Part shown: piece by piece, positions 57,653 through 62,518 of the stretch
Layout: each line of letters starts with the position of its first letter
Numbering within the stretch: the first letter of the stretch is position 1
NCBI GenBank assembly: GCA_963758525.1
Contig: CAVWVQ010000002.1
Coordinates: 288,001-352,000 of the forward strand
Direction of reading: 5' to 3'
Origin: an uncultured Phycisphaerales bacterium
GTDB lineage: Bacteria; Planctomycetota; Phycisphaerae; Tepidisphaerales; Tepidisphaeraceae
DNA: 64,000 nucleotides
The notes under the pieces: generated by a model
What the model was told of the DNA's origin: nothing
The model's input: the letters and a program-made list of their open reading frames with translations, nothing else
Database searches by the model: none
Translations under genes and position numbers: made by a program

Positions 57653-58267
57653 TCATGCCAAAATCTTTTCCAGGCCCTGGCGAGTCATCAGCAGGGTCCG
57701 ATTCTGAAGAATGTCCCACGCGTTGAGCTGATCCACGGTGGTCAGCGTCGTGCGGGCAAGGTTGCGGGCCGATCGCTCGAGTTGCTCATCGCGACCCGGC
57801 AATGCCAGCAGGCAACTGCGATCAATGCTCAGTGCCTTGAAGATCTCCGCAACAAATTTTGTTTTGGGCTGGTCCAGCGTGATCTGATCGACCACACGAA
57901 TATCGCTGCTCTGAATCTTGGCGAGAATCGCGCTGTTTCGGGCCAGGCGGCGGGCCTTCTTCGGCATGGCCTGACGCCAGTCCTTGGGTCGCTTCTGCTT
58001 GGCGTGACCACCGCCGACCTTGATCGGATTGCGGATGCCGCCGGTGCGGGCGTTGCCAGTTCCCTTTTGGCGGAACATCTTGCGGGTCGAGCCGGCGACT
58101 TCGCCGCGCGCCTGCGTGCGAACGGTGCCCTGCCGCTGATTGGCGTGATACATCACCAGCGCCTGCTTGAGCAGATGGTCGCGGACGGTGCCGCCCAGCT
58201 TGGCCTCGTCGAGCGCAAAGGTCTCGATCTTGTCGCCCTTCTGATTATAGATTGGAACTTCGATCAT
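57653..58267 (-). CDS. rplD: 50S ribosomal protein L4
   Basis: RQGT, RQKGTGNAR, PKTK, SARN. Confidence 0.96.
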   Translation of the reverse strand: MIEVPIYNQKGDKIETFALDEAKLGGTVRDHLLKQALVMYHANQRQGTVRTQARGEVAGSTRKMFRQKGTGNARTGGIRNPIKVGGGHAKQKRPKDWRQAMPKKARRLARNSAILAKIQSSDIRVVDQITLDQPKTKFVAEIFKALSIDRSCLLALPGRDEQLERSARNLARTTLTTVDQLNAWDILQNRTLLMTRQGLEKILA

Positions 58268-58297
58268 GAGTGGGTCCCTCGGAAGGGCAGTGGCGAA

Positions 58298-58964
58298 TTA
58301 CTTGGGTTGTTCCTTGGGAATGCGCTTCGTGTAGCTCTGACGAATAAAAAGGAGCGTGCCGTTTGGTCCGGGCAGCTCCTTTGATCAGCAGCAGGTTGTT
58401 GTCGGAGTCGATCTTGACGAGGGGATGATGAAGACAGGTGACCTGGTCCATGCCCATGTGCCCCGCCATGCGCACGCCCTTCTTGGGCTTGCCGCATTGA
58501 CCTCGCCACGTGGCGCGCGATGCGATCGATCCGGGAGATCGGTGCTTGCGCTCCGTGCCGTGCGAGGCGGGCTGACCACCGAAGTGATGCCGCTTCATGA
58601 CGCCGGCCGTCCCCTTGCCTTTGCTCGTCCCGATCACATCAACCCATTTCACTTCGCTGAAGGACTTCACGTCGACCGTGGCGCCGGCAGCGAGCGTGGT
58701 CGCCTCTTTCAGGCGAATCTCGCGGAAATGCCGCCGGGGGGTCGTGCCACTCTTGGCACAATGACCGATCAGCGGGAACGTGCTGTACTTGGCCTTCACT
58801 TCTCCAAAGCCGATCTGCACGGCGTTGTATCCGTCGCTCTCAACGGTCTTGACCTGCGTGACGGCGCATGGCCCCGCCTGCACGACGGTCACGGGAATAA
58901 CGCTTCCCTTCTCGTCATAGATGCGGGTCATGCCCACTTTGGTGCCCAGCAATGCAGGAGTCAT
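58298..58964 (-). CDS. rplC: 50S ribosomal protein L3; frameshift near 58374
   Basis: KVGMT, DGY.AVQ, SKGKG, HRSPGS, MAGHMG; LLIKGA continues PGPNG in another frame to TAA 58298-58300. Confidence 0.94.
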
Positions 58965-59020
58965 ATCCAATCCGTTTCTCGCCTGCTCGCTTAAAAAAAG
59001 CGAACGACAACAACTCACCT

Positions 59021-59098
59021 GGACACGCGGCCCTTTGCAGGGAACGGGTTCTTGGCTGAACCCCGCGGTCCAAAAGAAAGGCCCCTTACGGCAGGGGC
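59021..59098 (-). promoter_or_regulatory. Candidate structured cis-regulatory RNA in the rpsJ-rplC spacer
   Basis: Minus strand: hairpin GCCCCT-N6-AGGGGC followed by CTTTCTTTT, then a three-way junction with a GCAA tetraloop. Confidence 0.4.
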
Positions 59099-59114
59099 AA
59101 ATGAGAGCAGAAAT

Positions 59115-59420
59115 TTATGCCTTGATCTTCACGAAAACGCCAGCCGGCACAACCAGGCGATTCAAAGCTTCCACCGTGCGCGCGGTCGGCTCGAAGATAT
59201 CGATCACGCGCTTGTGCGTGCGCATCTCGAACTGCTCGCGCGATTTCTTGTCAATGTGAGGGCTCCGCAGAACCGTGTAACGCTCGATCCGGGTCGGCAT
59301 CGGAATCGGCCCGCAAACCCGCGCATTGGTCCGCTTGGCGTGATCGACGATTTCCTTCGCCGACGCGTCAAGCGAGCGGTGGTCGTAGGCTTCCATTCGA
59401 ATGCGAATCCGGCCGTCCAT
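59115..59420 (-). CDS. rpsJ: 30S ribosomal protein S10
   Basis: [33 protein letters not shown]. Confidence 0.97.
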
Positions 59421-59594
59421 CGTTTCCTGTTCCTCTCGACAACCCTCGTTCCCGCGGAAGCAACCGTGCTCCAGAACAAAACGGGAGGGTCAACATTAGT
59501 CAAAATGAGATAAGTGTCAAGCTCCGCGGTACGCAAATTTTCACCGATCAGCCGGCGGCGACAGGTTTTGCTGCACGTTTCCAACCGGAGCGCC

Positions 59595-60098
59595 TCACTT
59601 ATTACCAATGTTAAGCGCGTAGAAACCATCAAAGATACCTTTGCCGTCCATCTTCAACGTCCCCAGGTGACGGAGAACAACAGCGTCATCGATATCGTTT
59701 GTTTCGTATTCCTCAGTCCCGCCCGCATCGGTTGATGAAAGCGTCACGTGAAGATGGAAGAGCCCCTCGGCATCGTAGTTCATCTGAATCGCTGCGATAT
59801 TCGTCCCCTGCAAGATCCGCCAGACCATTAATAAAATCTCAGGGGAAGCAGCCGAGTCGACTACTTGGAAGAACGCCCGTACTTTGTGAGGATTCTTCTC
59901 GTAAGCTACCGCCAGGGATTCCGAGGTAAGAGCAGGTGCGTTGCTCCCCAGCCGCGTCAGAGCCACCTCGTTCATGCGATGAAGCACCGTCTGGATATGA
60001 CCGATCGCGCGTGCGCGAGGCCTGTATCCATCTATCAGCCATCCCTGGCCGGCCTCGCGGATCAACTTCTCGAGGGGATCTACGACCGTTGTGGTCAT
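59595..60098 (-). CDS. Hypothetical protein, gene 3 of the coupled cassette
   Basis: 167-aa ORF; ATG overlaps the upstream stop (ATGA at 60095-60098); GAGG upstream. Confidence 0.7.
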   Translation of the reverse strand: MTTTVVDPLEKLIREAGQGWLIDGYRPRARAIGHIQTVLHRMNEVALTRLGSNAPALTSESLAVAYEKNPHKVRAFFQVVDSAASPEILLMVWRILQGTNIAAIQMNYDAEGLFHLHVTLSSTDAGGTEEYETNDIDDAVVLRHLGTLKMDGKGIFDGFYALNIGNK

Positions 60099-60484
60099 GC
60101 AGCCTCGCTGGCAACCGCGCCGGCAAAAATCTCTTGCGAAAGGCTTCGCCGAAGGCTGTTTACGAAAGACTCAATCTGAGGCGGCGGAGTCGCGTCAATG
60201 GCGACCGTCAGCTCGCCTTCGGAACGAAGGAGATGAATGAGCGTTCCATCCAGCGATGGGTCGGCGCCCAATTCCCCCCAAAGTTTAGCGGAGACGGGGT
60301 CGCGAAAGGCGAGAATTTCGCGCCGGCTTGCAAAATCGATGTCGGCGTAACGACGGAAAACTTCTCCGGTCTTCGCATCCTCTAACACCACATCGTGCCA
60401 CAAACGGGTGATAGCGCGCACCGCCAGATCCAACGCCTCCACGTCTCGCGCCACTGGGATAATAACATCACGTCCGCCGATCAT
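60095..60484 (-). CDS. Hypothetical protein, gene 2 of the coupled cassette (possible immunity/antitoxin)
   Basis: MIGGRDVII... 129 aa; ATGA overlap at 60481-60484; GGAG upstream. Confidence 0.65.
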   Translation of the reverse strand: MIGGRDVIIPVARDVEALDLAVRAITRLWHDVVLEDAKTGEVFRRYADIDFASRREILAFRDPVSAKLWGELGADPSLDGTLIHLLRSEGELTVAIDATPPPQIESFVNSLRRSLSQEIFAGAVASEAA

Positions 60485-60795
60485 GGCAGGTTCTCCAAAC
60501 TCCCGTGATACCGTTGTCGCGATCTGGTCACCGTGTAATCGACCGGACTCCAAAAGACATATGCGCCCTTTGCGCCACTAATCGGCAGCAATCCGTCCTG
60601 ACCATCGAAACTAAAGACGAATGCCTGCTTTGCCTTGGGGATCCGGGTTCGGGCCGAAAATCGGTGCGCGTTGGGTCGCAAGGTTGTGAAGTATACCCCA
60701 AATGGCCTGTCGGCGGGTGGCTGCGCTGCCTTGAACACCCAGTCCACCTGTGAACTGATCGCTTTGTATCCCGCGTCATCCGTATAGTGCAGCAT
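60481..60795 (-). CDS. Stand-alone HYD1-signature ADP-ribosyltransferase-like protein (Tox-ART-HYD1-like)
   Basis: LHYTD..GY.AI, G.YFT.L.P and a late acidic residue (PVDY) fit the H-Y-D ART pattern; 104 aa; no signal peptide or carrier domain. Confidence 0.6.
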   Translation of the reverse strand: MLHYTDDAGYKAISSQVDWVFKAAQPPADRPFGVYFTTLRPNAHRFSARTRIPKAKQAFVFSFDGQDGLLPISGAKGAYVFWSPVDYTVTRSRQRYHGSLENLP

Positions 60796-60857
60796 GTTTG
60801 GCGCGTCGAATTATAAGCACTCAAGCTCGGCGGCCCCGTATGGTCGGTTCGCCCGTG

Positions 60858-61907
60858 CTACCTGATTCTCACTTCCCGCCCCTGTTCCGCACTGGCGTAG
60901 ACCGCATCGAGCATCTTCTGCACCATCAGTCCGTGTTCGCCCGGCACCTCGTTGGCCCGGCCGTCCCGGCAGACTTCTACGAAGTGCTGCATCTTGTACT
61001 CGAAGTGATCCCACTTCCCGAGGGTCGGCACCGTGCAATTCATCAGGTAGCCGCCGTGGTCGGTGAAAATCTGCGACGACTCCCAGTTGGCGCCGGCCTT
61101 CTCACCCATGATGGTGATGTTCCAGATGTCCCTTTCAATGTGCGCGGCGAAGCTCGACTCAATCGTCAGCGCGGTGCCGGTGTCAAAGCGAATCATCCCC
61201 ACGGCCAGGTCTTCCACGGTGTAGGTTTTGTAGTCCCACGCCCCCCACGGCGCCAGCGCCTTCATTGGCTTGTTGCCAAGATAGGTAAACGTGCTGCCGG
61301 TGGCGCTGATCGGCTTCGGGGAGCCGATTAGATAATGGGCCGCTTCGAGGCAGTGAACGCCGATGTCGATCATCGGGCCGCCGCCCTGGAGTTTCTTCTG
61401 CCCGAAGACTCCCCAGGACGGAATTCCGCGGCGGCGCAGCGCCTGGGCGCGGACGTACAGGATTTTCCCGAAGTCTCCCGCCACGATCTGATCGCGAATC
61501 ATCTTGCTGCGGGGCTCGAAGCGATGTTGGAACCCGACAATCAGCTTTTTCTTGTTGCGCTTGGCCGCGTCGAGCATTTTCCGGCCCTCCCTGGCGTTCA
61601 TCGCCATCGGCTTCTCGACCATGACGTCCTTGCCGGCATCCAGCGCAGCAACGGTGTGCTCCAGATGCAAGCCATTGGGCGTGCAGACGCTCACCGCTTC
61701 AATGTCGGGGAGAGCTTTGAGCATTTTCTGATACGTCTCGAACGTTTGCGCCACGCCCAGATCCGTGGCCGCAAGGCGCGCAGATTCCTTGATGTCAGCG
61801 GCTCCGACGACATCGGCGCCAGCCACCTTTTTGAGGAGGTTCATCTGAAGCTGTCCGATGAACCCGGTGCCAATGAAGCCGATTTTCAGAGTTTTTGGAT
61901 CGCTCAC
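60858..61907 (-). CDS. Gfo/Idh/MocA oxidoreductase
   Basis: IGFIGTGFIG, VCTPN, VEKP, GGGPMIDIGVH; GTG start after GGAG. Confidence 0.9.
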   Translation of the reverse strand: MSDPKTLKIGFIGTGFIGQLQMNLLKKVAGADVVGAADIKESARLAATDLGVAQTFETYQKMLKALPDIEAVSVCTPNGLHLEHTVAALDAGKDVMVEKPMAMNAREGRKMLDAAKRNKKKLIVGFQHRFEPRSKMIRDQIVAGDFGKILYVRAQALRRRGIPSWGVFGQKKLQGGGPMIDIGVHCLEAAHYLIGSPKPISATGSTFTYLGNKPMKALAPWGAWDYKTYTVEDLAVGMIRFDTGTALTIESSFAAHIERDIWNITIMGEKAGANWESSQIFTDHGGYLMNCTVPTLGKWDHFEYKMQHFVEVCRDGRANEVPGEHGLMVQKMLDAVYASAEQGREVRIR

Positions 61908-62050
61908 GTCTGCTCCCGCGCGCTCCATTTCTGTAGCGGCTAACTGTATGGCTCGCACGCGGTAGTCGGGCCGACCGGCGCCCACCCCGGCCCAACGTCA
62001 GCGACGCCGACTGCATCGGAATGACTGCACCGCCAAATCCCTTACCGGCA

Positions 62051-62518
62051 TCACAGCGACGCGACCAGCGCAGCCAGGTCGTCGGTCTTGCGCGGCTCGC
62101 GCATGGCGACTTCCTGGTAGTACGCGATCTTGCCATCTTTCCCGATGATGACGGTGCCGCGTTTGCTGCAGTTGAAAGGCTCCTCGCCGGCCCACATGCC
62201 GTAGGCCTTGGCCATCTTTCGCGTCGGATCGGAGAGCAGCGGATAGGGAATGGCGTACTGCTTCGCGAATGCCGCGTGGCTGAAGGGGCTGTCGCAACTC
62301 ACGCCAAAGACGACGGTATCGGGTCCTCCCTTGATCTGCTCGACACCCGGCCCAAACGTGCAGGCCTCGGTGGTGCAGACGGGAGAGAAGTCCATCGGAT
62401 AAAACAACAGCACGACTTTTTTCCCCAGCAGCGAGGAGAGCGAGATCTTGTTCTTGTCCTGATCCATCAATTCAAACGCCGGGGCGATGTCGCCCGGTTT
62501 TAATGTCGGATTTTCCAT
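62051..62518 (-). CDS. Peroxiredoxin (AhpC/TSA, BCP/AhpE-like)
   Basis: FYPMDFSPVCTTEAC, GVS.D, LLSD, RGT.II. Confidence 0.9.
   Translation of the reverse strand: MENPTLKPGDIAPAFELMDQDKNKISLSSLLGKKVVLLFYPMDFSPVCTTEACTFGPGVEQIKGGPDTVVFGVSCDSPFSHAAFAKQYAIPYPLLSDPTRKMAKAYGMWAGEEPFNCSKRGTVIIGKDGKIAYYQEVAMREPRKTDDLAALVASL

Follow-up and report, generated by a model that had tools for sequence, protein, structure and literature searches.

The minus strand of the window (the whole 64,000-nucleotide stretch analyzed) carries, at positions 59595-60815, a cassette that is a real, conserved and apparently undescribed three-gene toxin module. Our preferred reading, to which we assign a probability of roughly 0.45, rests on analogy with CmdTAC (PD-T4-9): the cassette would be a toxin-antitoxin-guard module derived from a domesticated toxin/immunity pair and working as a protease-gated intracellular switch. 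No description of it was found in the main texts of the open full-text literature, among them the available portions of PMC9825190 and PMC13617354 and, by term search, PMC9503650; neighborhood tables in supplements could list the trio. None of the PADLOC models matches any of the three genes.

The initial annotation had placed the cassette between a Gfo/Idh gene and rpsJ and described three minus-strand ORFs (104, 129 and 167 aa) chained by ATGA overlaps; the location (between a Gfo/Idh/MocA gene and rpsJ, the latter identified from its translation) and both overlaps were confirmed. ORF1 (60481-60795, minus strand; 104 aa, pI 9.75) encodes a stand-alone Tox-ART-HYD1-like ADP-ribosyltransferase, a likely toxin, with residues H3, Y35 and D86. 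ORF2 (60095-60484, minus strand; 129 aa, pI 4.76) encodes a likely antitoxin of alpha/beta fold and polymorphic-toxin immunity origin, and ORF3 (59595-60098, minus strand; 167 aa) a proposed guard or sensor with a helical N-terminal half and an alpha/beta C-terminal half. Coupling of ORF1 to ORF2 (60481-60496, minus strand) involves a Shine-Dalgarno-like GGAG motif (60496-60493) and the ATGA at 60484-60481, an overlap retained by most related loci, while ORF2 and ORF3 overlap in the ATGA at 60098-60095. ORF2 terminates with two Ala codons (GCT GCA; 60098-60103, minus strand), a predicted ClpXP degron, the final base of which also opens the ORF3 ATG.

All three ORFs are under purifying selection. 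In 18 of 18 comparisons (three genes, 6 related loci), dN (0.10-0.47) was far below dS (1.1 to saturated), which indicates that these are real genes and not chance ORFs. The TATAAT hexamer reported in the initial annotation is indeed located 14 nt 5′ of the ORF1 ATG (60810-60815, minus strand) and may be a −10 element; because it has no consensus −35 partner and a sigma-70 scan of 58000-62500 returned 0 sites, we do not treat it as an established promoter. If used as a −10 element, it would possibly give a short leader devoid of a Shine-Dalgarno sequence. No common upstream motif was evident by eye among 34 related loci, and the inferred ORF1 start is TTG or GTG in 12 of the 34, consistent with a weakly translated toxin gene.

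The identification of ORF1 as a HYD1-type ART standing alone, proposed earlier from its motifs, is supported: the motifs are present, with the score of the protein itself against the Pfam model Tox-ART-HYD1 (PF15633; E 0.2, 12.7 bits) lying below the cut-off of 25. The same model was matched by 43 of 63 ORF1 family members at E ≤ 0.1 (best 7e-6). Searched against 1.84 billion representatives, a profile of the family gave 191 proteins with E ≤ 0.001, of which 150 were listed; among the matches listed, 27 longer proteins were scanned, 16 of which contain RHS or HINT domains and six of which passed the HYD1 cut-off. Since these profile links reach both the HYD1 model and RHS/HINT tips, we infer that ORF1 has an ART fold; a PDB sequence search with ORF1 profiles matched no solved structure.

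The residues of the ORF1 family agree with the HYD1 requirement for a His in strand 1 and a Tyr or Phe in strand 2. H3 and Y35 are present in 35/35 trios and in 38/38 stand-alone rows, and D86, the candidate late acidic residue, in 33/35 and 35/38, respectively, while the carrier-borne tips have the His in 24/24 cases and an Asp at position 86 in 10/24. Thirteen positions are invariant across the 35 trios, including the basic residues K56 and R93. Judged by these sequence features, ORF1 very probably has ADP-ribosyltransferase activity.

One of the closest described parallels is the pair Tre23/Tri23. Tre23 of Photorhabdus, an ART-HYD1 toxin, needs H8 and Y33 and ADP-ribosylates 23S rRNA, and Tri23 blocks it by binding, according to the accessible text of PMC8661411. 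The trio shares with this pair (Tre23 being compared by description) the HYD1-type domain with its strand 1 His and strand 2 Tyr, and a small downstream gene as inhibitor, a role that is putative for ORF2; it differs in adding a third gene and a predicted degron. By analogy with Tre23, and in view of invariant K56 and R93, there is about an even chance that the target of ORF1 would be RNA or translation.

In polymorphic toxins the toxin domain is fused to a carrier, whereas ORF1 is unfused and its fused relatives occur elsewhere. In the available part of PMC3482391, HYD1 appears solely as a toxin borne by a carrier, paired with Imm-My6CBD, and planctomycetes are not among the groups given for it. 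The RHS/HINT carrier and secretion system associated with Tre23 and PF15633 are absent from the trio, and for this reason the cassette is likely cytoplasmic; the maximum 19-residue hydropathy is 0.6-1.3. The tree requires two changes between tips and stand-alone forms and is compatible with the latter having arisen once as well as more than once. One candidate ORF1 fusion (L027) was rejected, as it consists of an open GC-rich frame preceding a stand-alone ORF1.

The proposal that ORF2 is an inhibitor gains support from a Streptomyces locus (L067), in which a 691-aa carrier-plus-tip protein with an ORF1-like end is ATGA-coupled to a gene matching the ORF2 profile moderately well (hhalign 90%, E 1.5e-6) that occupies the immunity-gene position. 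A second candidate, the gene behind an RHS tip in L056, was not borne out as an ORF2 homologue (hhalign 2.5%). The median pI over 35 trios is 4.6 for ORF2 versus 9.2 for ORF1. Because a homologue follows the Streptomyces tip and ORF2 is acidic where ORF1 is basic, ORF2 is, on sequence evidence, highly likely to be the antitoxin of ORF1.

As the initial annotation had noted for both ORF2 and ORF3, ORF2 belongs to no recognized family: its 42 members gave no consistent Pfam match, including none to Imm-My6CBD, and it has no NCBIfam, PADLOC or PHROGs family. Its AlphaFold2 model has a pLDDT of 90, falling below 50 at residues 126-129 (mean of the last block, 51). The best fold match (Z 7.6, rmsd 2.7, 87 aligned, phosphopentomutase) was not taken as an identity, since it reflects a common KA1/helix-grip-like arrangement.

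A comparison with DarTG and other two-gene ART toxin-antitoxin defense systems bears on the mode of inhibition. The antitoxin of DarTG, DarG, is enzymatic. ORF2 gave no macrodomain, NADAR or ARH match, and it therefore likely blocks by binding and not by reversal; we infer a binding antitoxin. The trio thus differs from DarTG in its antidote and in having three genes instead of two, and resembles it in that a stand-alone intracellular ART toxin is followed by an antidote (available part of bioRxiv 10.1101/2024.02.24.581848).

Some ORF2 homologues occur in other settings. A lone 103-aa homologue (L092:1378-1689, plus strand, G438:C22; hhalign 98.6%) lacks Ala-Ala, ORF1 and ORF3. Its surroundings are prophage-like and include an integrase, a methyltransferase and a match to a virion protein; it is the one instance of this kind and may represent a phage-borne antidote or counter-defense gene, or an orphan immunity gene. 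In other copies (L040:376-1005, L059:1050-1709, P0313 and P0314) ORF2 carries an extra C-terminal helical domain (WSxDELACHPxxAxxFC) without a Pfam, NCBIfam or PADLOC match, and in L058/L059 no ORF3 follows.

The descent of ORF1 and ORF2 from tip/immunity pairs, together with the existence of orphan ORF2 copies (L092, L095), would also suit an orphan tip of a polymorphic toxin accompanied by two immunity genes, serving as a reservoir or as protection against incoming toxins and involving no intracellular switch. We consider this quite improbable. The start of ORF1 coincides with the boundary of the domain, an in-frame stop lies shortly before it and the cassette homologues measure about 100-120 aa; the cassette loci contain neither a carrier remnant nor an adjacent carrier gene. 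Moreover, ORF1 shows the strongest conservation within the trio (mean distance 0.50 versus 0.66 and 0.65), the cassette is single-copy in the host genome, where no second strong ORF1-like match was found, and a degron gives an immunity protein no benefit.

Taken as a whole, the initial annotation was partly supported: a likely toxin and likely inhibitor in a co-occurring trio hold up, enrichment in defense islands is not supported, and a second effector is disfavored. It overlooked the ORF3-linked Ala-Ala end of ORF2. This end was present in 34 of 41 ORF2 clusters followed by ORF3, versus 0 of 10 without ORF3 (the ten include one tip immunity gene and two orphans; L018 and L038, ending in AA, L022 in AI, L037 in HA and L040 in QR were dropped as contig-edge rows). 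The remaining 7 of the 41 end in TA, AV, VG, AI, TV, VA and VA, and the pattern [AVT][AV] covers 39 of the 41. The host baseline for Ala-Ala, from rough gene calls, is 8/171 and 10/202 ATGA-coupled ORFs; it was found at 0/35 ORF1 ends and at 0/17 other ATGA junctions within the loci, and at the ends of 29/61 ORF2 database homologues of uncertain context.

The penultimate Ala is encoded by GCG (11), GCC (10), GCA (7) and GCT (6), and the last Ala persists where ORF3 starts with GTG (L063) and where there is no overlap (L103). Since all four codons, a GTG start and loss of the overlap are tolerated, the constraint on the tail acts at the protein level. Viewed by eye, a semi-conserved [DE]-[ILM]-[FL] motif is followed by a linker of variable length and then by AA.

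The Fisher test for the link between Ala-Ala and ORF3 (p 1.5e-6) overstates it, because kin share tails and related loci are not independent; on the tree, the six ORF3-less rows require six separate changes. In addition, deletion of ORF3 could itself remove or mask Ala-Ala, as the codons overlap the ORF3 start, and in L003/L004 the tail changes right at the ORF2/ORF3 junction, which suggests mechanical masking by deletion. On present evidence the Ala-Ala end is probably a ClpXP degron; the host encodes clpX, and its tmRNA tag ends in MAA. For the host tmRNA gene (G000:C3) the long predicted tag is ADTNSVAGRIGFAAGPVRMAA (21 aa), ARAGORN having marked the tag as not identified.

ORF3 is a protein without a known family. 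Its 57 members share no consistent Pfam family, ORF3 has none in NCBIfam, PADLOC or PHROGs, and 0/57 members match Pfam SecB at E ≤ 0.1. The model (pLDDT 91) has the order helices-3 strands-helix-2 strands, from which the topology of SecB differs. Comparison with 48161 chains gave no clear match (best Z 5.2), SecB being absent among the best 50 fold matches listed. There was likewise no match among viral structures. Across the cassette, PDB sequence searches with four profiles yielded nothing significant and the ESM Atlas no usable lead; no SecB turned up in the host assembly, which is 90.9% complete.

D138 is the sole invariant ORF3 residue in the 35 trios, R143 is kept in 34/35, and H144 is missing from divergent members. 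With so few invariant residues and H144 lost, ORF3 looks more like a protein that binds than like one that catalyzes, and the suggestion that it might be a second effector is disfavored. By analogy, we tentatively propose that ORF3 may protect the tail of ORF2. The distances of ORF2 and ORF3 correlate best (Spearman 0.67 versus 0.52 and 0.40 for the other pairs), which can be explained by linked inheritance alone. Two ORF3 homologues (L048:1383-2183 and L049:987-1790) carry a further domain of roughly 100 aa at the C terminus, which would be expected if the sensed thing varies.

Other roles for ORF3 and the tail are conceivable, and we regard them as improbable. ORF3 could act as an adaptor that hands ORF2 over to the protease, or could itself be a second toxin that ORF2 holds as well; Ala-Ala could serve as an end that binds ORF3 or ORF1, or could result from translational coupling. 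The retention of D138 and R143 would fit an adaptor or a second toxin. If an adaptor were lost, the tail would not have to be lost as well. The C-terminal half of ORF3 has a weak likeness, in alpha-beta-beta-beta-alpha order, to eL38 (Z 5.0, rmsd 3.0, 60 aligned) and HicA (Z 4.7, rmsd 2.2, 44 aligned); both Z-scores are, however, at background level, and divergent members lack H144. A binding end would have a parallel in another ART immunity protein, whose C-terminal helix should, according to a prediction, obstruct the active site (available part of PMC13617354). The persistence of Ala-Ala after loss of the overlap and its absence from comparable junctions speak against coupling as the cause.

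The cassette is conserved yet rare, and is found mostly in Planctomycetota, to which the host belongs, at unrelated insertion sites; in environmental bacteria the same gene order recurs at dozens of sites. Searches yielded 33 matches among 35 candidates (57-182 aa) for ORF1, 61 among 7995 for ORF2 and 71 homologues among 154 for ORF3, and 62 metagenome and 5 genome loci were retrieved with the ORF1 alignment. ORF1 is near-full in 66/70 loci examined. ORF2 follows it in 57/58 loci with enough downstream DNA (40/41 dereplicated); the ORF2 profile was built from the same loci, yet the ORF2 of the window alone had already recovered most of them. ORF3 follows ORF2 in 37/49 testable loci.

Co-occurrence of the trio was thus borne out, with all three genes in 32/41 dereplicated clusters and a full trio with the Ala-Ala tail in 4/4 new, out-of-sample genomes found via ORF1. 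Matches to ORF3 were obtained in 3/400 other genomes of the phylum, all with ORF1 (frameshifted in one of the three) and ORF2, and matches to ORF1 in 5/140 other genomes of the order, the four new genomes being among these five. No intact ORF3 lacking ORF1 and ORF2 was seen where the context permitted the test. The trio is also present in one Myxococcota genome; of 301 genomes from the phylum to which Byssovorax belongs, the Byssovorax genome alone matched. Two proteins (P0164 and P0171) join the N-terminal part of ORF1 to the C-terminal part of ORF3, and are likely internal cassette deletions or assembly artefacts.

The cassette DNA had been described as A/T-richer and acquired, and both statements hold, the first modestly. 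Its GC content is 0.560 versus 0.607 +/- 0.024 for 1.2-kb windows of the host genome, only 3.4% of which reach so low a value; GC3 is 0.60-0.64, versus 0.69-0.80 in 8 flanking genes; and the cassette is missing upstream of rpsJ in the same-genus genomes G001 and G002. A tie to the ribosomal operon was rejected because the cassette occupies unrelated sites in other genomes; it is also countered by a TTGACA-type motif (seen by eye) that rpsJ carries upstream on its own.

The site before the S10 operon (59421-59595 in the window; L077; L078) differs in three same-genus genomes, containing the trio, a small 75-aa gene or a divergent Gfo/Idh gene, and may be an insertion hotspot. G002 retains just two C-terminal ORF3 fragments at separate sites (L079:4249-4494 and L080:4055-4393, both minus strand), which suggests repeated gain and decay. 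In the window, the rplC frame (58245-59018; 257 aa) runs over into rplD and has an atypical C terminus, the rplC product of G002 being ~231 aa, and 58245-58384 (minus strand) possibly contains an assembly or sequencing frameshift near the rplC end.

Enrichment in defense islands, which the initial annotation had suggested as a check, was not observed. Three partly overlapping sets of neighbors (111, 64 and 28 proteins), chosen from longer loci, consisted mostly of housekeeping genes. The sole defense-operon locus is L104:5889-13114 (plus strand, G510:C59), in which an ATGA overlap couples the trio to the restriction gene (res) of a type III system, with the methyltransferase gene (mod) downstream; the latter is apparently broken into pieces by additional small ORFs. 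The remaining PADLOC matches among the neighbors are generic helicase, kinase, AAA, HEAT or HTH proteins. With the queries used, no ORF1 or ORF3 relatives were found in viral contigs, no ORF2 relatives in 50,697 phage records and no ORF3 relatives in 72,556 plasmids.

Solo insertion of most loci between housekeeping genes, patchy presence among other genomes of the phylum and order, and decayed copies (the G002 fragments; frameshifts in L036, L051, L052, L058/L059 and L087) would all agree with another use of the same toxin-antitoxin pair and degron, with ORF3 stabilizing ORF2: a general stress response or a selfish addiction element, not directed at phage. We think this rather improbable, given the copy that sits within a type III RM operon and is coupled to it, the tail-less ORF2 homologue alone in a prophage-like region, and the lack in most loci of accompanying mobility genes, which an addiction module usually needs.

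The preferred reading, a CmdTAC-like toxin-antitoxin-guard module, draws on the following published features (available parts of PMC11618068). CmdTAC combines an H-Y-[EDQ] ART toxin with a SecB-like chaperone, CmdC; the antitoxin CmdA has an LAA end and is broken down by ClpP when not protected by CmdC; and the T4 capsid protein competes the chaperone off the antitoxin. AA/VA degrons are recurrent in TAC antitoxins, according to the available part of bioRxiv 10.1101/2024.02.24.581848. The trio shares the tricistronic order of toxin, antitoxin and third gene, and ORF2 too ends, by its sequence, in an aliphatic ClpXP-type dipeptide. As the order and the tail are the same and the third gene accompanies the tail, we propose a TAC-like mode of working with ORF3 as guard or sensor.

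There are also differences from CmdTAC, as far as the accessible text describes it. The third gene of the trio has no SecB match, either among its 57 members or among the fold matches listed; ORF2 is folded and of immunity type, whereas CmdA is largely unstructured, with two helices and a long disordered chaperone-addiction (ChAD) tail; and the toxin is a 104-aa relative of HYD1 tips. CmdTAC sits in E. coli prophage hotspots, while the trio is located mostly at chromosomal housekeeping sites of Planctomycetota, and CmdTAC is a known antiviral system, a role that is putative for the trio. Since the ORF3 sequences reveal no SecB homology and the fold comparison gave no clear match to anything (best Z 5.2), we do not file the trio as a TAC member.

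According to the proposed mechanism, ORF1, a likely NAD-dependent ADP-ribosyltransferase and kin of secreted toxin tips, would be held in check by ORF2, which likely binds and blocks it. The Ala-Ala tail is predicted to route ORF2 to ClpXP, and ORF3 would cover the tail and so keep ORF2 from the protease. A trigger, likely a phage protein, would displace ORF3 from the tail; the resulting loss of ORF2 would free ORF1, which would stop translation. That phage in particular would be the trigger is suggested by analogy and put forward with reserve. A bolder version, which we consider unlikely, is that the cassette represents a second, independent invention of the TAC antiviral switch, in which a secreted ART tip of the Rhs type was domesticated together with its immunity protein, the latter acquired a ClpXP degron, and a protein unrelated to SecB and without a known fold became the phage sensor guarding it; the degron-less prophage copies of ORF2 would then act in counter-defense.

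Because the cassette stands mostly alone between housekeeping genes, methods based on defense islands would miss it. As the unit measures 1.2 kb and encodes three small soluble proteins, each step of the scheme can be tested experimentally. If the scheme is true, the degron-plus-guard switch of TAC systems can do without SecB, ORF3 represents a new family of sensor or guard proteins without a known fold, and the conversion of an interbacterial toxin/immunity pair into an intracellular switch becomes traceable; Planctomycetota would also gain an extra defense candidate.
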